From Eledone cirrhosa (taxonomy: Eukaryota), in NCBI GenBank assembly GCA_964016885.1, contig OZ024742.1, positions 268,894,001 through 268,958,000 on the forward strand: 64,000 nt of DNA, in the 5' to 3' direction. Position numbers and translations under genes: made by a program. The notes under the pieces were generated by a model, which saw only the letters and a list, made by a program, of their open reading frames with translations, was not told the origin of the DNA and ran no database searches. Positions 1 through 20,446 of the stretch are shown here, piece by piece. The first letter of the stretch is position 1. Each line of letters starts with the position of its first letter.

Positions 1-229
1 TAGCTGAAAGGTAAGAATCAAGTGGAATAATGTTTTGCGACATTGTCAAATGTACAACCGTACAAAAGCAAGCTATATATCCATTGAAATATAGGTAGAC
101 CAAATAATTTGGTGGGGTTGTATATCAGAGAATTGTTTTCCTTGTGATTCACGTCTAGCCTACAAAGTGAAGTTAGATGATTGTAGTCGGTTTTGTATCA
201 ATAAAAAATAAAAGCATACGGAAGAATGA

Positions 230-407
230 ACACTTTCGAATTAAGTGATAATCACGTTGATATTCCTATCGGAGCAACATGTGCCGAAAAATCTACGCGT
301 CGAGTTTTTATATATGTGTCAAGTTTTATGAAAATCGGATGAATGGTGTAGCCTGCAAGTTCGGGACACCAAAAAAACAAACAACGCCCAACTTCACTTT
401 ATATATA
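230..407 (+). mobile_element. possible 3' end of a Helitron-like (Lep1/HINE-type) non-autonomous element
   Basis: Motif tgtgtcaagttttatgaaaatcggatgaatgg...caaacaac...ctttatatata resembles the 3' modules of the element at 45152-46974; boundaries uncertain. Confidence 0.3.
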
Positions 408-1295
408 ATTCTCGCTAATTTATATTTGTATTAATCTCCAGGGTCTAGCTATTGACCAGTTAATTTTCTTGATTTTTTTAGTTAATTCTACTGACTGATT
501 AATTTTACAAACCATTCTGTTTAGAGCTTAGTTCGTTTTGTGATATTTTGCAATTTTGCAATAACACACATACTGAATTCATCAGCCAAAACTAAGGGTT
601 GCCCCCGTTATCAAGCCCCACGAGAGTTTTTATAACGGTCAGTCCTTGGCTTGGCACTGAACTAAAAGCCTGTTGAAAAAGTGACATCCTTGTTCGATCA
701 TCATACGAAAAGCTTAACATTATTTGTCTAAGCAGACAGTACTTGATTTAGGAGTTGCAGAAACCCAATACTGGATATTACCAACCTTTCAGGGATCCGG
801 GTATAATTTTCAATCATATTTTATTTGTTTGACCCGAATTACTTGGTCGTTTCTATGGCTGTGCCGATAATGGTTTAACCATCATCACAGTGTGTTTGGC
901 CTTTTAACTTATGTTGTTGCTCTAGTTCACTAACTTCTATGGAGCGCTTGCCACACATCTCGGAAGTTGTTTTTCGCTAATTTCCAATAGCCGAAATACG
1001 ATTCTCGCTAATTTATATATATATATATATAACCTCTCTATTGACTATTATGACCCTCTAAATCTGATATAGGACGCATAGTTAAGCACATTGGCAATAC
1101 CGGAGAGACAATCAACTGGTTTACTAATTTAGAAAATAAACCCACTTATAATTTCATGAAATTTGACATAGATGACTATTATTCATTAATTCCTCATTTC
1201 CTTCTCACTAAGACCCTCATATTCAAGACGCGCAATTCCAAATTAACTAGAAATGAAGTCAATATAATTTTACCTGCTAGACGTTCGATCATAAT

Positions 1296-1482
1296 TGTTT
1301 CTAATTTTGGCACAAGGCCAGCAATTACACATTACATTACTGGTACTTTATTTTAGCGGCCTCGTAAGGATGACAGGCAAATTTAACTTCGGCGGGATTT
1401 GAACTCAGATCATAAAGGGACGTAACTCTATGCTTCAAAGCATGGTGTCCGACTCTCTACCGATACTGTCAATCAACCGCCC
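1296..1482 (-). mobile_element. tRNA-derived SINE (main family in window) with 12-bp TSD
   Basis: Minus strand has A-box-like TGACAGTATCGG and B-box-like GAGTTCAAATCCC; ttcgatcataat is duplicated at 1284-1295 and 1483-1494; five more copies in the window. Confidence 0.88.
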
Positions 1483-3375
1483 TTCGATCATAATGTTTGA
1501 CAATGAGTACTGTATATGTAAGGATAGACAAAATGACTTTAATATAACTATGGGGTTTGAGTGACTCGGGCTCAAGTTACAGAACTTGTAGGTACTTATT
1601 TCATTGACATGTTACTTCTAGAATTCCCTTTACTTCAACGAAGGAATGTATAGAGATGAAGCGCTCCAACTCGATAACAACTTCAACAGTCAACAACTAG
1701 ACAAAAGGAAAGCTGTTAAACCCTTCTTTCAACGCATGGTCCTTCAAATATCTTTTGACCATAAGCATAAACGCATCAACTTTTTAGATGTAACTTTCGA
1801 CCTTAACTCCGGCATATATGAACCCTTCCATTAATCTAATGTTAACTCAAACTATGTTAATCGTAACTATCCTAGGACTAACACTAGCTCCATAGTAAAA
1901 AAAAGTATCCCTTAAGATCTCCAGATTGTCTGTCTCCTAATGCTCTTTCAATACACACGTGGGTTACTATAATGCTGCTCTACTGAAGCCCGGTTATGAT
2001 GAACCACTAACATTTCTTCCGGATACGCCACGCGGGGAAGGTCCAAACACCCAATAGGACAACATCACAAGCATGCCACACAAAATGTTCAAATTTAAAT
2101 ACTGACGATTCAAGGCCCCACGGCGGGGAGAGAAATAATAATACTGCAAATAAGAAAGCACCAAGGAAGTCCTGCACAATATCATTCCTATAGTAAAAGG
2201 ATCTGGTAACAACTAAGCTATCCTATTTCTGCTTGAAACTTATAGACGAACATTTTACCCCAACTCAAAAATTCTACAGAATACTAAATAGAGACATAGT
2301 CGGACTATCCTATTCCACTACAGCTAATCTAGGCAATTTCATCATAAAATTGAATACCAAACACCTCCGCAGATAGGGAAATAGAAGTAGCCAACGGAAA
2401 ACCTGAACAACATCCGCAACCTCAGACACTAAGCAGACTGTCACCCTCAAATAGTAACGTCTCTTCCACTTTACGGACATATCCGAAGCAACAACAAAAT
2501 ATCCGGAATAGCACATCCAGCACTGGCACCATGGAGGTAACCACAAACTATACACGGACAAACTGCAAGTGAATAAATCATAGCAATTGGTAAATGCTTA
2601 TACAAAAATATTATTTATCAATTTGTGGTGAAATCTAAACTGGGGATATATAAATATGTGGGTTCGAATTTGAATATTTTCAAGAAAACATTGTATGTGC
2701 ACAAACACATTTAAAAACGCCAGTTTAGCTACATCTATGGCCCTGGCTAAATAAATCTGGGATCTGAAACGCGCTAATATTCAACATACACTACAATGGT
2801 CCGTGCTAAAATTCGCCCGTCCATACCGGAATGAAAGATGCCCCTGTGAAATATATTTAAGGGAAGTTTTTGAAATAGTGACCGGAAAGGACCTTCTAAT
2901 TCCCCGGCACGATAGGATATTTAATTGCAAACACAAGGTTCTAAAAACCTTCGCTAAATATAAGTGAACTAGAACGAGATACGATCCCTAATACCTAGGT
3001 CTTACTATATATTATTTGCTACATTTCCTGTGGTATTTGAACTTTTCACACCCAATGGATTCAGTAATATTCAAAACAGACCCATTTTCTTAATTCCTTT
3101 CCTCCTTACCCATTCTCGCCTACCTTATCGTTCTCTACCCCCAGATATGGTGGACATCAAAACCTTCCCCTATAACGATGGTCAAATAATAATTGTTCCC
3201 CATAACAGCACACTGATTGATAGTGTGACACTATTTACACCCACAGCTGCTCCGCTCTTCTATGACACAAACTTATTGTATTTCATATTTTAAACTTTTT
3301 ACACTTCCTTTAAACAAAACTCTCATTTCTGAATTTTACCACGTAGTGAACAGTTGAATTCCACTACTATAGACG

Positions 3376-3471
3376 TTCTGATGAAGTGTAATAAATAATT
3401 AAGTATTGCATATAATTGAACAATAAGTCAGCATATGTAGAGAATTTAATATCGACAAAGAAACATGTCAA
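3376..3471 (+). ncRNA. degenerate hammerhead-like motif in PLE 3' region
   Basis: CTGATGA at 3378-3384 and GAAA-CATG-TC at 3460-3469 (palindromic stem III); stem I only 2 bp and ~75-nt stem II region poorly paired. Confidence 0.35.
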
Positions 3472-4100
3472 AGCAAATAAATTAATAATGTCTTCAGGTC
3501 GACGTTTTATTTTTCTTGTTGCAATACTTATATATATACATAAATTAATAAAAACAATGAATAAAAACATAAAACAAGTTCCTAATATTTAAAAAAATCA
3601 TCATTTTACGATCGTCTCTAGGATATATATGTTTGTTGGTATGTATATCATATAGATCTATGTAAACATTTTACAAACTATCGGAGGAAATATACATACC
3701 TTCACATATATAGGCTGTCTTCAGAAATATATATATATATATATATTGGTAAACGGAATAGAAAATGCTGACAAATTGTTCACAGTTGAAAAATGGTTTA
3801 ATTAGGAATAAAAGAGTATTAGTGATTGTATGGGTTAGTATTCAGTTGTGGTTCTAAGTTTTTAAGTTTTTACCGGTTGCGCATTTCTAAATGCTTTTCA
3901 AAAATAATTTTGAGATAGAGTGTCCGTGTTGTTTGCTCTGATCTGATTAGTTTTGGGAATTCTACCTGTTTTTATGTTAAAAAAGTGGCTCCAGCGCTAC
4001 TTAGGTGTTGAACAAATTCTTGTGGTCAAAACAATTTTGATTGGTCGGTAGAGATCATGTGAATGTAAACAATTGATTTTGCGCCAAGACTGTTTTTATG

Positions 4101-4694
4101 TTAAAAAAGTGGCTCCAGTGCTACTTGGTGTTTGCAAAAATTCTTGTGGTCTTGTGGAGAGGTGTTTAGACGGGGTCCGTATTTGTTAATGAAGTAAGAT
4201 TCCTTGCTGATGCGCTGGGTGTGGGTGGCATTATCTTTAAATTTGTAGAGGGGAAAGATTCTGAAGTTGGGATGATTTTGGGCGGCACAGGTATCAATGT
4301 GTTCACTCAGTGGTATTTTCCTGTATTCCCGTATTTTAATTTGGGATCTATGGACAGTCATGCGTTGGCGGAGGCTGTTTTTGGTCTGGCCTATGTATTG
4401 TTCTCGACAACCTGAGCAAGTTAATACATATATTAGATTTTCCGATGCACATGTGAAATTGTGTTTTACTATAAAACGTTGTCCTTCTTTGAAATAGAAT
4501 TCCGAACCCTCTATTAGGTTGATGCAAATGCCACAGTTGGGTCTATCGCATTTTTCTACTGTGGGTTTTGTTGTTGTGGTTGGCAGTACTTTGGCATGTG
4601 TTAGGATGTTTTTCATTGACTTGGATTGTCTTTTGCTCTTTATGATATCGTGTGTTCGTAGGATTTGGTTCATTCTATGGTCCTTTTTCAACAC
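4101..4694 (-). pseudogene. PLE GIY-YIG endonuclease domain with Cys-rich linker
   Basis: KCDRPNCGIC...NLIYVLTCSGCREQYIGQTKNSLRQRMTVH...ESYFI...RLN; separated from RT by frameshifts. Confidence 0.9.
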
Positions 4695-4885
4695 AGGGAT
4701 GTTCTGGAGGATGGTGTCAAAGGCCTCATTGTTGAGGGGGTTGTGTGTGGAGATGTATGGAAGAGCTTTTAGTTTCGGTTGATTTACTTTAGGGTGTCTA
4801 GGGTCCTGGGTACTGAGTTTTAGGGCACGTTGGATTCCATTGTCAATTAGTGATGCAGGGTAGTCCCCGCCTATGAGTGTGTCCT

Positions 4886-6400
4886 TTAGTTCTTGTAGCC
4901 GTAAGTAACAGGTGTTTTTTTATTGGAGACTATAGTACAGATTATCTTGGCTAAGTTGTAGGGAATATTAATTTTAACGTGTCTAGGGTGGCAAGAGTTG
5001 AAAGGGAAATATTGCTTGGAGTCTGTGGGCTTGTAGTATATGTCTGTTTCGATTTTTTTGTTATGGATCTTAATGAGGATGTCGAGGAAGGGGAGTTGTT
5101 GATGTCTGTATTCCATCGTGAAGTTAATATTCGTGTTGAGCCCATTTATAAGGGTGTGAAATTCTTTAAGTTTTTTTATGTTTTCGTGCCAAAGGATGAA
5201 GCACTCATCTAGATATCACTTCCAGTTCCTTTCAATGTGTAAGTGGAGGGTGTTTCCAAATTTGTTTAGGACTTTAGTGTAGAGGGTGATTTCCAGGTAT
5301 CCAATGACTAGGTTGGCATAAGTGGGGGCTGTTTTCGTTCCCATAGCGGTCCCAGATTTCTGCCTGTAGGCTTTGTTATTGAAAACGAAGTAATTGTTCT
5401 CCAAGATAAATTTGAGTCCCTCTATCACGAATTCTTTTTTGATGCGTTGTGGGAGTTCATTGTGGAAATTATCCAGCCAGAATTGGCTAGTTTCTATTCC
5501 TAGGTTGTGGGGATGTTGGAGTATAGGTTGACTACATCGAACGTCACTAGTAGGGTTTATTCAGAAAGTGGCATATTAGGGAGGTGATTGAGCATATCTA
5601 GGTCGTCCCTTATATAGCTTTTGATGTGTTTGAGGAAGGGTTTGAGAAGGGTATCAATGAAGTTGCTAAGGCGGTGGGTTTCGCAAGCGGGGCCTGCTAT
5701 TATAGGTCTTAATTTGAGATCATTGGGTGAGGTGACATTGATGACTATGTCTGTGGCTTCCTTGCATGCCTTACTTATTGATTCGCTTTTATGTACTTTA
5801 GGGATACCGTAGAAAAGGCTGGATTTACTTGTGAAGTCTGTGATGAAGGTGAATTCCTTGTTAGTGAGTCCTTCTTTGTATTGGTTGATTAGAGTTTTTA
5901 GGTTTCTCATCATTTTCTGTTGATTGTAGTGTTCAGCCTTTTCGTAGTATGTTTCGTTTTCCAAAGTGGAGAGCGCTAAGTTGATATAGAATTCTGTCTC
6001 CATTATCAGCCTCTTTAATTGTAATGGTTCTGTCGGTTTTTAATCTATTTAATTCTTTCCATTCTTTCTTGTTGAGGTTTGGCTTGTGTTTTTGTCTGTG
6101 CAAGTGTTGGTAAGGGAAGTTTGTGATGTGTTCACAGAATTCGTCCAGGATTTTATTTTACCTTTTGAAGGGGTGAAATTGCTTCTATTTCTGGCTAATG
6201 ATTCATCCTCATTGTACTGGTCGAATAGTTGTTCACTAAGTCGTAACTTTCTACAGAAGTCTGTGATGTCTTCCTTCATTTCATAGTAGTTAGAACGTAG
6301 TGGGGTCGGTGTGAATTTAAGACCTTTGGAGAGTAAGTTGATAAGGTTAGGTGTTGGTTCTGCACTAGTAAGATTGATAATTTTTATTACTATTGGTTTC
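4886..6400 (-). pseudogene. PLE reverse transcriptase, disrupted
   Basis: FYGIPKVHK, LRPIIAGP, LVTFDVVNLYSN, QKSGTAMGTKTAPTYANL, WK*YLDECF (YxDD degraded), LPFLDILI...IYYKPTDSKQY; stops and frameshifts. Confidence 0.9.
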
Positions 6401-7202
6401 TCCTCCCTGTCTTGTGTTATTTTGTTTGCCTGTATCTGTGTGCTGTGTCTAAAAAATGGTTGGGGTAGAGGGGTTGTCTGCTGATGTTAAGTGGTCTCCT
6501 GTGTTTGTTATATTCCTTGTTTTTATAAAATGTGGTTCGGGTTGGTGGTTGTAGATTGAATGGGGTGTTCCTGTACTGCGAGTATGGGTGTGTGTTTCTA
6601 TGTGCCATGTTGTATTGTGGTGTTCTAAGTGGCCTACGTTGTTGGTTGTATCGTGTGGTGTGGGTTTGTTGTGTATTGTGGAAGCGAGAGTTGAGAAAAT
6701 GGTAATTACCTTGCTGTCCCCTTGAAGCGGGGAAGTTGTTACATCTATCATGGTGGTGGTATCTTTTCCCTATGTTTGACGATGAGGCATCCGCGTAGTA
6801 GTTGAGTGATTTGGTATGGTGTCTCCTTGAAGGGTGAAAGTTGTAAATGTCATTCTGGGGGAGATGATTTCTTGGGTTTTTGTTCCTTCTTATGGTAGCG
6901 AGGTTGGGAAGTCCATCTTCGGTGTGGTGCTTCCTTCTTCGTTTGTTAGAGGCTTGGGGGTTTGAGAAGTTGTTGTGCGGTTCAGTTATGGGTTTTCCTA
7001 TTTTTATGAACGGGTTATTGGAGGTGTAATCCGTTTGAAAAGTCGATTCATAGTGTAGGAACCAAGCGGCACATTTTTCCCAGCGTTGAAGGGATTTCAG
7101 TTCATCTCTGTTGCAGTCCTCTTTCCATAATTTGTAGATCTTCTCTACATTGGGGCCTTCAGTTTTGTTGTTGATTTCCAGGAGGATCTCTTCATCGATG
7201 GT

Positions 7203-7782
7203 TTAGATTTTTTCCTCATTTGTCTGGGCCCTCAGTTTAAGAAGTTCAATTTCTGTCTTCATTTTTTCCAATGCCATTCTTTCCCTAAGGTGTCTTTGAG
7301 GTTCGGGTTCATTTGGAATGAACTTTATTTGTAGTTTACGGGGGATAGTTAGAGGGGTTGAGTTAAGCCATTTTTCATATATCTCTGCTATGTTGTGATT
7401 TTGTATCATCTTCCAGAATGAGAACTTTCTGTCTCTGAGGGATTTGTTCCATTTTGGAATTGTTCGAATTTTCATTTTGTATGAATCAATCTCACATGGT
7501 TCTTCGTTGGTTTTTTCCTGGGTTGGTAGTAGTGAACATAGTTTGGATAGTATCGCAAAGGTTTTGGAGTTTGTCGCCGATTTCGGAGGGTTTGTATCCG
7601 GTGGCGGTTTCCTTATTTGTGGAGTCAAGTTTGTCGACCAGCAAAGATAGGTTGGTGTTGATTTTCTTGAGTTCCTGTAGGATCTCTTCATTTGAGTTGA
7701 TGAGGGTTGTATCCGTTTTTGTTGGCATTTTCTGTATCTCGTGTGAGGATATGATAGTTAAAAGAATAGAGGTGTAACACAC
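7203..7782 (-). pseudogene. N-terminal (coiled-coil-like) part of the PLE ORF, frameshifted
   Basis: Two overlapping minus-strand ORFs directly downstream of the internal pLTR tail and upstream of the RT. Confidence 0.5.
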
Positions 7783-8194
7783 AAGTTATTATATATTGGT
7801 AAACGGAATAGAAAATGCTGACAAATTGTTCACAGTTGAAAAATGGTTTAATTAGGAATAAAAGAGTATTAGTAATTGTATGGGTTAGTATTCAGTTGTG
7901 GTGTTAAGTTTTTAAGTTATTACCGGTTGCGCATTTCAAATGCTTTTCAAAAATAATTTTGAGATAGAGTGTCCGTGTTGTTTGCTCTGACATGATTAGT
8001 TTTGAGAATTCTTGGCGCAAAATCAATTTTTTACATTCACATGATCTCTACCGACCAATCAAAATTGTTTTGACCACAAGAATTTTTGCAACACCAAAGT
8101 AGCGCTGGAGCCACTTTTTTAACCTAAAAACAGGTAGAATTCCCAAAACTAATCAGATCAGAGCAAACAACACGGACACTCTATCTCAAAATTA

Positions 8195-8231
8195 TTTTTG
8201 AAAAGCATTTAGAAATGCGCAACCGGTAAAA
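8195..8231 (+). ncRNA. variant minimal type I hammerhead fold (U3-A8, GCAA)
   Basis: ttt-TTGAAAA-gcattt.ag.aaatgc-GCAA-ccgg-TA-aaa; the same core is on the minus strand at 3868-3904 and 7918-7953. Confidence 0.55.
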
Positions 8232-8392
8232 ACTTAAAAACTTAAAACCACAACTGAATACTAACCCATACAATTACTAATACTCTTTTATTCCTAATTA
8301 AACCATTTTTCAACTGTGAACAATTTGTCAGCATTTTCTATTCCGTTTACCAATATATAATAACTTGTGTGTTACACCTCTATTCTTTTAAC

Positions 8393-8595
<203 letters not shown>

Positions 8596-8660
8596 TCTCC
8601 GTTGATGTCGGGGGATTCCTATCGCTGTGTCTATCACTGTGATAACTTAATATAATAATT

Positions 8661-8863
8661 TGAGATTTAAGCACAAGGCTTACATTTTGGGGAAGGGAAA
8701 ATCGATTAAATCTACCCTGATGCATTACTAGTTCTTTATATGTTCGACTTCGTAAGGATGAAAGGCACAGCTAGCTTCGGCAGGATTTGTACTCAGATCG
8801 TTAAGGGCCGTAACACAATGCCATACGGCATGTTGCCTGACACTGTTCCGACACTGCCAATCC
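8661..8863 (-). mobile_element. tRNA-derived SINE, diverged copy
   Basis: Shares gcacaaggc...cgtaaggatgaaaggca...ggatttgtactcaga...ccgacactgccaat with the other copies. Confidence 0.8.
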
Positions 8864-10997
8864 ATATTTTTTTTGTGATAATTTTGTGGATCATTATAAA
8901 TTTCCGCCTCTCTCGTTATACACATATATCCCAGAAAATACACACTATAATCGTAGAATACTTATTTTGAAATGATACTTCTTTTAAACTTTTGAGTCGC
9001 ACAACATTTAACTGAGTTTCTTCTTTTGTGTATTTGTTTATTTTTCTCGATTGTCTATTTTTTATTTCACTCTCCCTAAAAACAATTCCTAGATTGTATA
9101 ATCAATGTTTAACATCAAAGTATTAGATAAGTAGTTCAATCTCTAACTTTGTTTTGCCATAATTTGTCTGCAGGTGTACTTTCATCTTTGCTCAATATAT
9201 TTTATAAGTTGATGAATTTAAATTCTTGTGTGGCCAAAGATACTCTACTTTTATAGATTTATTTTACTGTAAGCATTGTATTGTGTTTAATGCGTCTGGA
9301 TATTGAATTATGTGCTTCATGTTGATCTATATTTATAATCGTTTAAAAATGTAGGATATTTACAGATTTATAGATATATTTCCTTCACTTCGGCACCTCA
9401 TAGTACAGGTGGTTCCTTCTTCCGTTCGATAAGGTACATTTAGATACATGTTATATCAATATATAGACGGCTAAATATTATTCAGACACGTGCATCTATA
9501 GCGTAATTTTTATGCTGCATCAACATCAACGATTAGACGAAGCTACATTTTGAAATATTGTTATAATCTTATAACTAAATAGTTGCCCGAAGAATCCAAG
9601 CCTCGGTTTGGAGGAAACAATTGTAAGCAAATAAATGTTTTAAACTGAACTTTGATTATTGTAATCTCTATATAATCTTATCAAAATTCTCTTACGAATT
9701 TACCATGCAAATAAATTTACCCACTGGTTTTGGATGATCCATGGTTTTGTGGCAAGTGTTGGAATCCAACTCAGGACCTGATGACAGCTGTCCATAGCCT
9801 CAACGAAGAATTAGCTTTCTCTTTTCAAACATGATGCTGCACTTATACTTTCAATGAATTTGATAATTGAAGAAGTGGCAAGCCTATGAAGGGTCTTTTT
9901 AAAGGTACTACCTCATAAATGAAAAATGTACTATATTTCGGATCTCATGTAAAGTTTATGGTGTATTTAGCTCCAGGTTCTGAATAATAAGCCTCGGATT
10001 TCTGAATGAGGTTTTCTTAGTGCAACATTGATGAGAACGGCAAGAAACAATGATTATTTAGATACTTTCCAACAATTCATCATTTAAACATACCCTCCAA
10101 ATCTCTTTCAAATCACAGTCTTGATATGGAAATAGATTTTACACAAAATGATAATAGACGCAACATATTTCGTATAAAAGGGTTGAAAGTTACAGACAAT
10201 ATAATTTTATCATATGAATGTCTGATAACAGAATAGAATAGTAAATCACATGCTGTATATTTTATTGCAAATCATATTGATAATATGTAAATTAAATTTT
10301 ACTATATATTGAACATAATTGTAACCTCTCGTTTAACTATGTTAAATTCATATCGGTATGTACAGATTATATATTTTAATCGTGTCTGCGTAAATATGGA
10401 TAAAATCTGAGTACATGAACATGCAAATATGTCAAATATAAGAATAATTTCTCTGCTGTATTTAAAAAAAATAATGAATATGTCATATTTATGTTCAAGC
10501 CTATTTAGTGCCTCGTTATTGAATATAATAAATCAAATACTCGCTGGGATACATGTAACTAGTGGCATTATAAAGACTATTAAATGTGATAACAATTACG
10601 ACGTGTCAAATACTATAGTTTTCTTTATAACACTGGTAATATTTTAAGCGTTACTTCATTTCAGAAAATGCCCTGTATCAGCCTTTATATGTTGACCCAT
10701 TGTTAAGAGTCTTTTGTTCATACACTTCCTACAGCGTAGCCTAACCTGCTGCATGTTCTAGTCGAAAGCTTACTCTTTATATATTCGCATGTAATCACAT
10801 TATGTATGTGTTGATTTACTCATAAATCTGCAGATCACTGTGTTTTATCAGGTAGAAGATAGTTTATGTGCCTTTTGTATTTACGTTGTTTTATTGTACC
10901 GGGTTACTTCCTAACAGCTGCTCTTTTGTTAACCATACTACAGTTTTTCATGAAAGAGCTGATGATGTTGTAGAATCCTAGAATTTTCCTTTTCCTA

Positions 10998-11037
<40 letters not shown>

Positions 11038-11042
<5 letters not shown>

Positions 11043-11332
11043 ATACTTTGGGAGGGTCATATTGCCAATAAGAAACACACGCACCAGTTGTTTTCATTTC
11101 AATTTATTATAAATTAAATTTATAAATTTAGGAATTTATAAATGTCCGGTTGGTTGGTTGGTTCCACAACCAGACGATTGTTCATATATTGTCAAAGTTC
11201 TTTCGTCATATATTCTGTGACCTCTTCAGTGACTGGGGATTCTTTTTTTGTTTTTGTGCCAAAGTATAACAATATCGGTTTCAACACACGTTTTCAGATA
11301 AACAATCTTGCTAAAGAAATTCAGAAACGAAA
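11038..11332. mobile_element. PLE pLTR mini-insertion with short inverted end and tail
   Basis: ttgttatactttgg (11038-11051) is inverted at 11259-11272, followed by a tail 11273-11332 homologous to 17210-17270 and 61361-61395; lies between (TA)n tracts. Confidence 0.75.
11191..11233 (-). ncRNA. minimal type I hammerhead ribozyme
   Basis: Minus strand: gtca-CTGAAGA-g-gtca..tgac-GAAA-gaac-TT-tgac; stems I and II 4 bp each. Confidence 0.65.
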
Positions 11333-11358
11333 TATATATATATATATATATATATATT

Positions 11359-12682
11359 TAGTAAAATAACAGATTAAAGTTTAAGCAAAGAATCGCTGCT
11401 TTCACCCTTAATGGGATCTTCTGAAACTAAAAAATCAATCTGTGAACGCAGAAGTAAATATTTCGAAAAACGTTGCAACCGGCGGAAGACTGGAAGACAA
11501 TACTTGGGTTCGTGGAGACGTTCGCTGGCAATGAAGGGATAAAAAGGGAAGATAATACGTCATTATTTGGAGCGGTCAGAACAATTACACGCAAAGACAA
11601 AACCACGTTTATGGTATAAATGAAGTCGTAGACTAATATTATATTTAGGTGGTTCGCGGAGACGTTCCCTGGCAATGAACGAAAAAAAGGAAGATAATAC
11701 GTCATTGTGTGGCGCGCTGAGAACAATTACACGCAAAGACAAACCACGTTTCTGGCATAAAGGTAGTCGTAGACTAAAATTCTATTTAGGAAACCGAATG
11801 ATTCTCGGCTTCAGAGTTAAGAATAATGTAAATAAATTACAGAGGTTATTGAAATATACGTTTATTTAATTATATGTATACACGCACACACACACACATA
11901 TATACATATATTTTTGTTAATATATGTTATGTGTATTTGGTGTATACGTTTGTATGTGTGCGGCTACAGGTGTTGCGCGGGTTTGTGTACGTGTCCGCGA
12001 GTTTTTGAGTACGTGCTTGTGCATGCATATCCATGGCGGGTGTTTTGCGTTTGCATGTGTATGTACGTATATGGATGCGTGCATGTATATATTTAATTAT
12101 TCTTAAGCCGAGAATCATTCGGTTTCCTAAATAGAATTTTAGTCTACCACTTCATTTATACCATAAAAGTGGTTTTGTCTTTCCCTGTAACTGTTCTCAT
12201 CGTTCCATACAATGACGTATTATCTTCCCTTTTTTCCGCGTTCATTGCCAGGGAACGTCTCCACGAACCACCTAAAGTTTTATTTCATCTACTATGATTC
12301 AGACATTGAAGCAATTTCAGATAAAATTCATGGCCATAAATGTGGTTTTGTCTTTGCGTGTAATTGTTCTGACAGATCAAAATAATGATGTATTATCTTC
12401 GCTTTTTTTCCTGTCATTGCCAAGGAACGTCTCCACGAACCAAAGTATCGTCTTCCTGTCTTCCCTCGGTTGCAACGGTTTTTGAAATATTTACTTCTGC
12501 GTTCACAGATTGAGTTTTTTTAGTTTCAGAAGATCCCGTTAAGGGTGAAAGCAGCGATTCTTTGCTTAAACATTAATTTGTTATTTTAATAAATATTTGC
12601 TCTAGGGTTCTTATATATTTGATATATATTTATCCGTATTGAGCCCTCTTAGGATTTTAGTCCTCAAATTTATTATTATTAC
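11359..12682. mobile_element. fold-back element (inverted PLE pLTR-like arms) with internal ~140-bp tandem duplication
   Basis: Arm 11359-~11828 is the reverse complement of ~12095-12590; tail 12590-12682; flanked by (TA)n; HHR-like fold near each outer end. Confidence 0.8.
12523..12571 (+). ncRNA. hammerhead-like fold with CAGAAGA core
   Basis: gttt-CAGAAGA-tccc.gttaa.gggt-GAAA-gca..tgc-TT-aaac; mirror copy on minus strand at 11378-11428. Confidence 0.55.
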
Positions 12683-12751
12683 TATATATATATATATTAA
12701 AATAACATTAAAGTTTAAGCAAAGAATCGCTGCTTTCACCCTTAAGACAGG

Positions 12752-12943
12752 ATTAATTCGTCATAATCGTTTATTGCATGTTATATATTTCTGTTACATG
12801 GTTGCTCATGTGAATTCATCAGATTATTATGCATTCATAGTTGCATTTATGTTACTATGATTGCGTTAGGATCTGATGAAGTCACATGAATAATCATGTA
12901 ACAGAAATATGTATCATGCAATAAACAATTATGATGAATTAAT
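12752..12943. mobile_element. small fold-back with hammerhead cores in both arms
   Basis: Arms ~12752-12840 and ~12853-12943; plus strand at-CTGATGA-a-gtcacatg..catgtaac-a-GAAA-tatgta-TC-at (12871-12917); mirror at 12778-12824. Confidence 0.7.
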
Positions 12944-13857
12944 TCGATCTTTACTACTCTTATTTGATAAATGATTACTCCGTAGCTAATAATCACCAAC
13001 ACCTACGTGGGATAAACTACTGACGTGAAGTGCTTTCGGATTCGTTAGGACCGACCTAGACTCAAGATGTTACATCTAAGATTTACCATCTATTTATAAG
13101 GAACATTCCTCTGCAATATATTTATTCACATGCATTTATAGAAAGAGTAACAGTTATAACGACATAGGGTAAAAATAAAAAAAGACTTCAACATTTCCGA
13201 AAATTTACAATCATATATCAGACACACATAGATGTAAGTGCATCAATTTATTCACACACATAAAACTTCTTTGCATCAAGAGAAACCTCTCTTCAACTAA
13301 CATATTGACGTTTGCTCTATGCTGTAAATAAAAATTTAATTAAAATTTCTTCACCGTCTATTCAGATTTTTTAAGTTAATTCAGTTTTCAAAAATAGCTT
13401 TTTTTTCATTGATTTTGTTTCGCATGGAAATAATTGATCCTATATCCAGAAAAGGTTTCTTCAAATCTAATATATTCAAATTAGTCATGATATTGATAAA
13501 CTATATAATGGAAAGAATAATTAAAATGGCTTGTTTCTTATTTATATATTAATTTATTTCATTCATGTGTTTTGATTTTGATTTCTTGTGATCATACTTT
13601 ATTGATTTTATTTCAAGATGTTTGTATCTTTATGTTATAGAAAGTCTATTATAAATTAGGCAGGCTGGTTGCAATGTTGATTTGAATTCAATGGGTATTG
13701 CTTGCGAAAATGTGTATACGCACACATGTGTTTAATGGTTTCCATACGTATAACAATATAGTAAACGCATAAATACCAAAATGTATGCCTTTATATATAT
13801 ACATCCATTCAGTAATGCAGACACATAGGGATTTATTCACGCTCACATACATAAGTA

Positions 13858-13983
<126 letters not shown>

Positions 13984-14106
13984 GGAGGTGAGTTTTATTG
14001 TAGTACAATAAAGCAATGCAGATATCGGATAAGAAGCACTCTACAATTTGTAGGACTGGAGTATACATAATATAAGATCAAAAGATGGTTAAAGGAGTTC
14101 CATGTA

Positions 14107-14173
14107 TTTTATTATGCGCATTTCAAAAACAAACATCATCATGCAATAATATTTGTGTTTTCATCAGATAAAA
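14107..14173 (-). ncRNA. canonical type I hammerhead ribozyme (mirror copy)
   Basis: Reverse complement of 14384-14450. Confidence 0.85.
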
Positions 14174-14383
14174 CAGGAGAACATGATATGAAGGCTAAAA
14201 AACACCTGTGGACAGTGCAGTTTTAAATCAACATATGAAAAGTGGTTTTCATCCTTTCCACCCCCCTCTCTAAATAAAATATTTTTCCCAATATCACACA
14301 TCAATCTAAAACCACTTTTCATATGTTGATTTAAAACTGCACTGTCCACAGGTGTTTTTTAGCCTTCATATCATGTTCTCCTG

Positions 14384-14450
14384 TTTTATCTGATGAAAAC
14401 ACAAATATTATTGCATGATGATGTTTGTTTTTGAAATGCGCATAATAAAA
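14384..14450 (+). ncRNA. canonical type I hammerhead ribozyme
   Basis: ttttat-CTGATGA-(long stem II)-GAAA-tgcgca-TA-ataaaa; 6-bp stem I and palindromic stem III. Confidence 0.85.
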
Positions 14451-15046
14451 TACATGGAACTCCTTTAACCATCTTTTGATCTTATATTATATATATATAT
14501 ATATATATATCAGTATGTGTTGGGTGTAAATCGAAGTCGTAGATGCAATATACCAGGTGCTAATCGAAACTCTTTGAGGCAGTCAATATATTAACGTCCA
14601 GAGTAAACACAAAAGTTCTGAATGTGTGACACCAAGTAAAGTGACCAGAAGCAGGGGATCTACGTCTACCACATCAGCGAAAGAAACAAGTAGTTTGAAG
14701 AGTCACCTTGAACATCACGTGTCGATTATAATCGTTAGAAATCGATAAAAATAATCAATAGTTTTCTGCGAATTCAGGAAAGAACATGCATGTGCAATTC
14801 ATGTGTGCATACCCACGATGGAATTAGAGTTTCCATCTTAGGCAGGTTTTGCTACCTTGTATCCCGTGTTTCCGTCTTGTGACACAAGCATTTTACCGAT
14901 AGTAGAACATCTAGCTGTGATAGGACGTAATCTTTCTCCAAAGAAGAACAGAAGATGGCCGAACTATTGGAGGTTATTATATATAAATATATGTGTGTGT
15001 GTGTGTGTATGCATACGTACACAAACACACACATACACACACACAG

Positions 15047-15113
<67 letters not shown>

Positions 15114-16480
15114 ATATCGAAAATTAATCATAATATTCAATTCCTTCGTAAACAAACGTTCCGATTAATGCTGCGACCAATCTTCAACCATTTGTTCAAC
15201 AATGGCATCGAGAAAAAATTCAAAATGTTTCTGGGTCATTACCCTTCAGCAGGACTGCATACCTTTCTGCCAATCTATTGAACGGTTGAACATTTATAGC
15301 ATTTTCTTCAGTATACGGCTGAGTAGGCTCATTTGTATACATAGCGAGTTACGGCGGGCCTTGATGAAAATTAAAAATAAAATGAGAATATATATATATA
15401 TATATTCACACACACACAAATATACATATACATATGTACGTATGGGTTATATAGAACATTGATAATAATATTCGATTCCTTTGTAAAAAACGGCCCGATT
15501 AAAACTGGCTAGGGCAGCCGTAACTCACCCAGTATGCAAATGAGGCAAGGGGTTTGCCATGGGGTGGTTATGTGTGTATGTCGAAGGGAAGAATTTAGTA
15601 CATGTGTGAGGTTTCTGTCTGTGTCCCATTGTATTGTAAAGAGAATTCTGTGAAGCTATGGTTTTTTGTGTGTGTATGCAAGTGTGATTGTCCGTGTGTG
15701 TATGTTCTATGTATGTGAGTGTGTACTATCACGTGCCTGTTGAACAAGTGTCTGTGTGTGTGCATACAGGCAGGTGTGTGTAGATATTTTTTTATTAGTG
15801 TAAATGTGTACGCATGTCTGTATATGTCTGTGTATGAGATTATTTTTTGGGGCGGGGGCTTATTCGTATGTTACTGTGTCTGTGTGCTATTACCACGTGT
15901 GTGTATTGTATCACATGAGTGTTGTGGTAGTTCCGTCAGTGGCAGGATTAAATGATGTACATATGGTTGAGTGTGTATGTTCATGTAGTGTATGTTTGTG
16001 TGTGTGTGTATGTGTGTGCATGTGTGTACGTCTGTGTGCTGTAGTCTTCCGGGTATTCCAGGAGAGCAGTAGTCAACTGTGGTACTTCGAGGACAGTAAG
16101 GTTAGATGAGCGCGAAAATGAGAGAAGAAGGAGGTGGATGCGCACGCAGACGGAATTAGCTTGAGAAGGGGAAGAGGTAGTGGGGTGTATGTATTGGTTT
16201 CGTAGCATGTATGCATATATATATATATATCTATATATATATATATATATATATCAGTGTCCGTCTTTGGCGCTGGACTACTGTTCTCATTCTCTTCTGT
16301 TTTCCTATTTCTGCCCTTTGACTATATTTGTATAATTTTCTTAAAGGCATAACTTGTCTCAACCTGTTTTGTTATGTCCCAATGTGCACTGTAATGATAG
16401 GTATCAACGTTAATGCATTAGAACCGCGGTGGTTTCCAAAGATTACCCGAGAAGATCGGAATGTCCTATTTTCCACTTTT

Positions 16481-16815
<335 letters not shown>

Positions 16816-16832
16816 TATATATATATATATAT

Positions 16833-17031
16833 AGGTAAGTTAGTCGGGTTGAATCGGAGGTAACCACAGTAAGTAAGGTACTAAATACATAGCAGAGTAT
16901 AAAAGTGTTAATATCGATGAGATTCTACAGGACTAGAACTCTTTCATTCTTGAGAAATCATCAGAGATCTCTGATGATGTCTCAAGAATAAAACACTTCT
17001 AGTCCTGTAGAATCTCATCTATGTTAAAACT

Positions 17032-17033
<2 letters not shown>
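16833..17033. mobile_element. spacerless fold-back with hammerhead-like cores
   Basis: Palindrome centred at 16967/16968 (arms ~16901-16967 and 16968-17033); CTGATGA at 16971-16977 and its mirror at 16958-16964; GAAA intact only on the minus strand; extra tail 16833-16900. Confidence 0.7.
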
Positions 17034-17067
<34 letters not shown>

Positions 17068-17107
17068 CATATATATATACATATATACATATATATAGAC
17101 ATATATA

Positions 17108-18443
<1,336 letters not shown>

Positions 18444-18523
<80 letters not shown>

Positions 18524-18539
18524 CATATATATATGTATA

Positions 18540-18575
<36 letters not shown>

Positions 18576-18633
18576 ATCATATATATATAAATATATATAT
18601 ATAATCATATGATTATATATATATATATATATA

Positions 18634-18696
<63 letters not shown>
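18444..18696. repeat. interrupted (TA)n tract with ataatc inserts
   Basis: Directly visible. Confidence 0.95.
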
Positions 18697-18701
<5 letters not shown>

Positions 18702-20446
18702 CATATGCGTGAGTATATGCATAGAAGTATATATACACGTATATGCATATATGCGTGTGTAGTTATGTACGTGTATGTAGATGCTTACTTCTCTGTACGC
18801 GAATGCCAATAATTTTGAATGCCGTATTTCTTATACTGCATCGATATAAGTCAACATTGAGATACAGTTTGGTGTTTCGTTTGTCTCTAATTACATAATT
18901 ATTGAATGAAGTTCAAGTTTGCCAGACAAATATGTTTTGTCGTTGTGCGATGTCATTGATTTATGTGTACGGTTCAATCTATTGTTACTAAGCACTAATA
19001 TATACGAAGAGCAGTAAACAAGTTGCGTTTCCCTTACGTCATAACGTACCGAGCTGTTGCCTATATGTCGAAAGCTATGGAGAGATGCCCAAGCAGGAAC
19101 TAATATAAATATACTATATTGTTTGTCTTTACGGGAGATTCTCCACAATAACATTTTACTCATTGCACTTTTGATTTTACTTATGTAAATAAATGCATTT
19201 TTGTGACCCATTGTGATGTGTTTGGAAAAACCAATGTTTATCCCTTATACATATTTTTTCTATGTAATTAATTCAAACATGTTCTTTACTGATTAAGGAA
19301 CAGAACATTGTTTGAATTCCAAGGAGCTACTCTGCACCATAATCTGTTTTCGTACAACACCGTGGTGCTAAATTTACATACCAATAAATTATAGTACATC
19401 AACTCAAGGAGACTTCCTATATATTCAAATTGAGTGAAAACTTGTAATTCACATGCTCCTCCCCTAGCTGACTATAGTTTGAAAATAATAAAAATGGAAC
19501 AATTTGATGGACATACAATTCGACTGATATGCAGCCCATTGCAAACTCTATTTCAATACTATAATGATTTTGCAAAATACCATCGGCTTTCGAAAATATA
19601 TTTTGCAGTCCTTAATTACTGCTCTTCATTTTTCTGTATCCAGCTGAGGCGTGAAATTTGCATTTTCTTTTTTCCGACTATAATATTATGAATCGCCAGC
19701 GAATTACTACTTTCACTTTGACTTAAATTCATTTTCTCTTTCAACATTTTCTTTATTTTCACGTACAAGATTCACCGATTCCGCAAAATGATGGGAAATT
19801 AACAAGAAATAATAATGTTAAAGAGATGAATGGAGGAGTTTTGGAATGAATAGAAAATAAATAACTTCATAAGGTAAATAATAATATTTTTTGCATTCTG
19901 TGAGAGCTATGACAGATTTATCTCATCGAATTGTTTAAGTATTGGCGACTAATTAACCGTTAATTCATAATAAACTGCTCCTAATTTTGTCGAGCTCTAC
20001 CGGGTGGGTTTTTTTGCTGCTATTTCTAGTGACATTATAAGTTTGACAAGTAGTCCTAATATGCTAGGGGATTTTGATAAATAAACGCTACACGTGTTTA
20101 ATTCTACCATGCTGCCCCAGGAAAATGAAAACAATATGTATTATATTTTGATCAGTTTCTCTTAGCATATGAAGAAATAAACTCCCTTAAGAGTATGGCT
20201 GATTTTCAATTATTGGTGTTTCCAATGAGAATTTTTTTCTACTGAAACCATATCAGGAAGATCTATATATAAGAGAGTTTTAAAAAAATACGTATTTTGT
20301 TTGTATTTCCATGATTAGAGTTTTTTTCTCATTTAGTATATAATATTGCTTCTCTGAAATATTTCTCATTCAGATGTTTAAGTATTAGAGACTAATTAAC
20401 CTTTGATTAATATGTTTATACATACACATATATATATATGTATACC

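Follow-up and report, generated by a model that had tools for sequence, protein, structure and literature searches.

Minimal type I hammerhead ribozymes have been described in Penelope-like elements (PLEs) (Cervera and De la Pena, 2014; PMC4209133), and a motif at positions 8195-8231 of the window, the whole 64,000-nucleotide stretch of Eledone cirrhosa DNA that was analysed, resembles them in its pLTR location, its type I order, its U3-A8 and G10.1-C11.1 pairs, its palindromic helix III, its short stem I and its predicted dimer. It differs from them in having C13 in place of A13, in lacking an unpaired base between 9 and 10.1 (two of the published palindromic-helix-III motifs likewise lack this base), and in a stem I made of three A-U pairs. 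The canonical box is present in every one of the 56 motifs aligned in 2014, but the descriptor used to find them demanded it (PMC4209133). The U3-A8 pair, as the Cercyon variant, and palindromic forms of helix III were published in that work; for PLE hammerheads, U3-A8 is also published with some 1,300 matches in S. mansoni.

Natural variants of the hammerhead core (Perreault et al., 2011; PMC3088659) share with the window motif the covariation of U3 with A8 and the tolerance of rare core changes. The variants given in the text of that source are A6C, insertions (6a, 13a, 2a/2b) and U15.1-A16.1; a substitution at 13, as in the window motif, is not among them, and A13 is listed there as strictly conserved. 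Position-13 substitutions are likewise absent from the 56-motif alignment (PMC4209133) and from the text of the Perreault supplement, figure panels aside, and term searches of PMC11014351, PMC2553840, PMC2837043 and PMC6765202 returned no A13C data. A natural C13 hammerhead family was not found in the literature, where Lünse 2017, on small PLE hammerhead variants, could contain one. The earlier note had named U3-A8 and the second-box change together; both are present, and C13 is the new part, U3-A8 and the palindromic helix III being already published. A deep mutational scan found rescue of the core by the C3G/G8C swap alone, so in that construct U3-A8 would have had low activity (PMC9901934).

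Two further systems bear on how such a motif might act. Poseidon_Ac (Frangieh et al., 2024; PMC11167929) is probably like the family of the window element (family A) in its weak intrinsic activity and in the use of uncut RNA as the main template, and like the window element itself in a tail derived from an internal start of reverse transcription. Unlike family A, it has a canonical C3-G8 core; its hammerhead is dispensable in vitro, and no RNA-seq ends were found at its cut (PMC11167929), whereas in family A genomic fusions mark the predicted cut. Chimeras of U6 snRNA and LINE-1 (Moldovan et al., 2019; PMC6789731) share with the family A fusions the U6 3' end, the T tract and a 5'-truncated retroelement. 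The joins of U6 to L1 are dispersed (PMC6789731), whereas those of family A fall on one base, which is the predicted hammerhead cut. No paper was found on U6 joined at hammerhead cuts.

The host element and the layout of the motif

The host of the motif is a minus-strand Penelope-like element (3740-8012) that carries an inverted arm and has microsatellites on both sides (Table 1). Its last ORF piece contains a GIY-YIG domain (Pfam, E=7.9e-07); no Pfam match to RT was found in the broken ORF pieces of the window element. RT and GIY-YIG occur together in one ORF at a family C locus, L131, to which the window pieces are 43-76% identical, and RT followed by a C-terminal GIY-YIG is the order of canonical C-terminal-EN Penelope-like elements. 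A CX2-5CxxC linker and a CCHH endonuclease motif were read by eye in the 4101-4919 translation, with the definitions of PMC8557442, where the Neptune/Nematis-type layout of Cys linker and CCHH endonuclease is described; on these motifs, the layout of the window element is that of a Neptune/Nematis-type Penelope-like element. The pLTRs, the inverted 5' arm, the 30-40 nt tail and the microsatellite target expected of such an element are all present. Family A is young by the resemblance of its copies, since the 40 best of 809 candidates in the 3.0-Gb genome are all 100% identical over 220-221 nt.

Other parts of the window hold related material. A short fold-back fragment of family A occupies 16672-16800, and its sense arm begins no more than two bases from the predicted cut, with microhomology blurring the junction. 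A second retroelement-like fragment (1054-1474, with a 100-aa ORF at 1054-1356) has a 140-nt repeat in common with 8723-8862, at 76% identity. Long inverted repeats at 14062-14495 and 11429-12519 (188 nt at 99% and 186 nt at 90%) are possibly fold-back ends of other Penelope-like families.

Table 1. Features of the Penelope-like element and of its hammerhead motif, in window positions.
Feature	Positions	Strand	Remarks
3' pLTR	3740..3963	-	ends in (TA)n target
Hammerhead copy, 3' pLTR	3868..3904	-	identical to 8195-8231
Broken ORF (frameshifts, stops): N-terminal region, RT, Cys linker, GIY-YIG	4101..7757	-	
5' pLTR and tail	7754..8012	-	
Hammerhead copy, 5' pLTR	7918..7953	-	loop II shorter by one base; a stem I pair disrupted
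Inverted arm: element 3' end, pLTR, about 40-nt tail	8010..8395	+	ends at microsatellite
5'-end hot spot among genomic copies	8150..8166	+	23/101 copies
Type I minimal hammerhead motif, U3-A8 and C13 variant	8195..8231	+	in inverted pLTR arm
Stem I strands	8195..8197 and 8229..8231	+	
Core box U3-A9	8198..8204	+	U3 (8198) and A8 (8203) instead of C3-G8; A9 = 8204
Stem II, G10.1-C11.1 closing pair	8205..8218	+	folding, ten-row alignment
G12, C13, A14, A15.1	8219..8222	+	G12 = 8219, C13 = 8220 (variant base), A15.1 = 8222; genome counts, 74-copy sample
Six-base palindrome	8222..8227	+	U16.1 = 8227; common to families A, B, C; stem III predicted only between two copies
Predicted cut, A17 (8228)/8229	8228..8229	+	U6 fusions elsewhere begin at equivalent of 8229

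On the sense strand of the pLTR, the motif runs in the order stem I, core box, stem II, second box, stem III, UH and stem I, so that the type I topology with a palindromic stem III reads as the earlier note had it. The minus-strand copies lie on the sense strand of the element ORF, and on reading, all three copies proved to have the same core, as that note had also claimed. Positions 3 and 8 form a Watson-Crick pair (U3-A8 in all ten rows of an alignment of families A, B and C). The invariant second box retains G12, A14 and A15.1, with C13 at the place of A13. The G10.1-C11.1 pair (G-U in three family B/C rows) and the palindromic 15.2-16.2 region are both present. A scan of window 1-20000 with the Rfam models left the motif undetected at E<=10; the earlier note had expected consensus searches to miss it.

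Fixation of C13 and the A13 sister lineage

An exact pattern of the motif has 11,285 matches with C13 in the whole genome and 61 with A13, against none for the reversed-pattern controls, so the motif is not a product of chance. These counts bear out the view that the variant core is fixed in the family; a canonical consensus, which would have spoken against that view, was looked for among the genomic copies and did not occur. The changes had been said to predate the insertion on the ground that three pLTRs share them: the fixation holds through the genome counts, while the argument itself falls, because the three pLTRs of one insertion stem from one RNA and could not alone demonstrate it. Of 74 distinct copies found through an anchor downstream, 84-99.5% identical to the window copy, 73 have C13. 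Among 30 A13 matches that were read, most are point mutants of family A, many of them scattered and several with C13 in the sister arm, and a few are copies of a separate lineage. Columns with a variant common to at least four of the 74 copies number 1 of 37 in the motif (at the loop edge) versus 17 of 119 in the flanks (Fisher one-sided p=0.04). Contigs of sequencing runs X1 and X4 have no substitution above 5% within 8179-8249, though these runs may come from the assembled sample and so are not independent. The conserved stretch reaches upstream of the motif, to 8179, and another constraint may therefore contribute. In a second organism (run X5), a contig on window 8050-8210 matches the family A pLTR up to stem II and ends before base 13.

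A relaxed pattern has 28,688 genomic matches versus 23 for its control, which by subtraction leaves about 17,000 outside family A; among the 100 matches listed, nearly all of those outside family A belong to one A13 lineage, families B and C. In the ten-row alignment, position 13 is the sole core column that differs between family A and B/C, and the palindrome is identical in both lineages. Both-side, compensatory changes between the lineages affect one pair in stem I and one in stem II, the fourth stem II pair being U-A in the window motif and G-C in family C; as the ten rows are related, these changes count as two events and not seven. The bases pair in 90.9% of the cells, versus 19-55% in slid controls. 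The motif is a hammerhead homologue on comparative grounds, namely the same core with A13 in the sister lineage and the compensatory pairs in stems I and II. C13 is likely derived, having arisen in the ancestor of family A, because A13 is canonical and is held by the sister lineage. That C13 is an insertion was ruled out by the one-to-one alignment with families B and C.

Folding, 5' ends and U6 fusions

Stem II had been drawn as six base pairs with a two-nucleotide loop, which cannot close; folding gives five pairs (probabilities 0.99, 0.99, 0.99, 0.96 and 0.72) and a four-nucleotide loop. The duplex of the palindrome between two copies is predicted at -8.3 kcal/mol. Stem I of family A, with its three A-U pairs only, has a predicted probability near zero, and a competing hairpin in the fold sequesters U3-A6; the family C motif folds straight into stems I and II. 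With C13, the three-A-U-pair stem I and this hairpin, family A looks attenuated. In both lineages, a separate hairpin can also be traced over the 5'-end hot spot (window 8156-8185 on the plus strand; L135:965-995), one of its pairs apparently changing from A-U to G-C. The predicted fold of family C includes this hairpin; that of family A does not.

A main peak of 5' ends had at first been expected at the cut and was found instead at 8150-8166. In addition to the copies in this hot spot, the 101 unselected copies comprise 21 with 5' ends spread over 8167-8290, 56 further upstream and one further downstream, and none of the 101 begins at the cut (8226-8232). In families B and C as well, copies frequently begin at the homologous spot upstream; transcription likely starts there. 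A genome-wide pattern for copies of subfamily A1 that lack the palindrome has 83 matches, which by eye are 37 repeat expansions, two deletions and about 42 junctions near the cut. Exact A1 5' ends at the cut, counted where the first retained base follows immediately on a G or T, number 18 (16 unambiguous) versus four true junctions at a matched upstream site (p=0.004 to 0.012); set against the raw control count of nine matches, the excess is not significant (p=0.12). Family C has 133 matches at the cut, about 40 of them exact among the 100 listed, versus 18 in all at the homologous control. The controls chosen first were poorly matched, with many indels and duplications (23 matches at a site six bases upstream, 36 at one downstream, 89 for family C), and the matched ones (nine for A1, 18 for family C) were used instead. 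The excess of 5' ends at the cut is thus modest in both lineages. Most insertions probably do not come from cut RNA: cutting is likely rare and not needed for most of them, because most truncated copies begin about 70 nt upstream of the cut and stem I has only three A-U pairs. In the head-to-head insertions L154, L159 and L163, one arm ends at the upstream hot spot and the other begins at or beside the hammerhead cut, and both points look like natural ends of an RNA.

In two of the A1 junctions, the sequence before the element is the 3' end of U6 snRNA; Rfam recognises it with E=2.5e-08 and 2.5e-04, matches that stay under the gathering score because the pieces are partial. An exact U6 17-mer has 118 genomic matches; among the 100 listed, 23 lie in the gene array and 77 are dispersed. 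These 77 and five more make up the 82 dispersed U6 3' ends of the survey, which left out mismatched U6 ends (most of 175 further matches) and a few exact ones. Joins to family A occur among the 82 at three loci, all at the predicted cut after A17. At L207 and L198, which are 98% identical to the window pLTR, U6 is joined exactly at the equivalent of 8229; at L230, an older and diverged copy (72% to the reference), the join is at the cut within one base. The cut after A8228 expected in the earlier note is thus where the fusions at other loci begin. Of the 82 ends, none is joined to any other point of family A, the upstream hot spot included, and none at other UA sites or A runs; at L239, a U6 end is merely near a family A copy of opposite orientation. 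A targeted search for joins to family A returned the same three loci. In families B/C, U6 is joined exactly at the cut at three loci of the survey and at one more from a targeted search. Per copy, fusions are alike in the two lineages, with three per about 11,300 for C13 versus four per about 17,000 for A13. The joins at the cut show no microhomology in either lineage, and have the make-up of RtcB-type U6 chimeras, that is a U6 3' end, a T tract and a microhomology-free join to a 5'-truncated element. That all three family A joins lie at the cut by chance is very unlikely (estimated below 1e-4), since only about 42 of several thousand A1 copies start at the cut, yet three of three joins do.

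Hammerhead cleavage leaves a 5'-OH end. RtcB ligation of U6 requires a partner with a 5'-OH, and dependence on RtcB was shown for L1 (PMC6789731). Because the fusions need the 5'-OH that hammerhead cleavage makes, they suggest cutting in vivo; end-to-end template jumping may instead have produced the U6 chimeras.

The U6 genes form a tandem array with a spacing of about 1.8 kb (G000:C19:31778862-31840329). Several other repeat families (among L181-L256 and L311) are joined to U6 at nearly fixed points. The largest has about 25 loci (e.g., L181, L188, L246) and the second about eight (L229, L235, L252); a tRNA-like repeat has three to six (L200, L204, L234), and two further repeats have three (L197, L209, L224) and two (L182, L196). 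Fixed join points in these families may mark ribozyme cuts.

Probable cleavage in vivo and its meaning

The preferred explanation, considered quite probable, is that the motif is a hammerhead homologue in a PLE pLTR that has kept C13 through several subfamily expansions and likely retains infrequent self-cleavage after A17, in which two pLTR copies would probably act as a dimer. With its start about 70 nt upstream of the cut, the transcript would hold two copies of the motif, in the 5' and 3' pLTRs, and their palindromes would pair to form a complete stem III, as proposed for PLE hammerheads (PMC4209133). A cut after A17 would leave a 5'-OH end, which an RtcB-type ligase could occasionally join to U6, and the RT of the element would then copy the product into (TA)n; most insertions would arise from uncut RNA. 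The element protein may help the RNA to fold, as reported for Poseidon of Anolis, and by analogy with that element (PAc) such help is a plausible rescue of the C13 core. Both A13 and C13 have an exocyclic amine, and as a guess, C13 could keep the amino-group contact of A13.

On the indirect evidence of the three U6 fusions and of the modest excess of 5' ends at the cut, the predicted C13 hammerhead likely still cuts itself in living cells. The further claim, that a natural hammerhead with both C13 and U3-A8 cleaves itself in vivo at a per-copy rate close to that of the A13 sister lineage, is somewhat favoured. The motif is classed as a variant whose mode of action is likely that of a PLE hammerhead; with A13, a defining base, replaced, it is not filed as a canonical member. 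Substitutions of A13 are said, from work by Ruffner in 1990, to strongly lower the rates of minimal hammerheads. Also counting against self-cleavage by family A are the small number of U6 loci (three, one of them diverged and with a one-base ambiguity), the near-zero probability of stem I together with the hairpin over U3-A6, and the absence of the cut as a 5' end among the 101 unselected copies.

Alternatively, the C13 core could be inactive and the fusions could stem from trans-cleavage of family A RNA, with family B/C supplying an A13 enzyme half and the common palindrome forming stem III. The palindrome permits this, being identical in both lineages, family C is abundant and folds well, and in a double hammerhead the cut strand belongs to the partner copy. 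A mixed stem I, however, would have two pairs only, and two separate RNAs would have to meet, whereas a single family A transcript holds both pLTR copies; the enzyme half of family A, moreover, is free of shared variants across subfamilies. Cleavage in trans is accordingly considered unlikely. An improbable account of the same order is that the motif is a vestige, kept as a promoter, an RNA structure or a protein site, and that the free end comes from a nuclease or from a stop of the RT at the start of the A-rich run. Conservation that extends upstream to 8179, the degraded stem I and the proliferation of hammerhead-less PLEs (PMC8557442) would fit this account, but among the U6 ends read, the two lineages are joined at one and the same position of the core although they diverge downstream of it, and at no other UA site or A run, and an RT stop would leave unexplained why the upstream hot spot, where 5' ends are commoner, has no joins. 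It is very unlikely that rare A13 revertants of family A alone cleave and supplied the fused RNAs: such copies exist, and base 13 is unreadable in the fusions, which lack the upstream half of the motif, but revertants are at most 61 of about 11,350 copies (0.5%), yet the fusion rate per copy of family A is close to that of the A13 lineage.

The C13 motif has consequences for how hammerheads are found and understood. Searches for hammerheads demand the canonical second box, and whole families, here about 11,000 copies, are thereby missed. Family A and its sister lineage share a genome, and their cores differ by one base only; they are a ready-made experiment on the role of A13, and the pair also bears on the rescue of a damaged core by dimer formation or by the element protein. 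The U6 fusions at the cut, as indirect in vivo evidence, bear on the role of hammerheads in Penelope elements. If C13 does cut in vivo, the catalytic core would be looser than any search descriptor allows, and rescue by dimer formation or the element protein would be likely; the points of fusion with U6 would then be a genome-wide fossil map of ribozyme cuts, those of other repeat families included.
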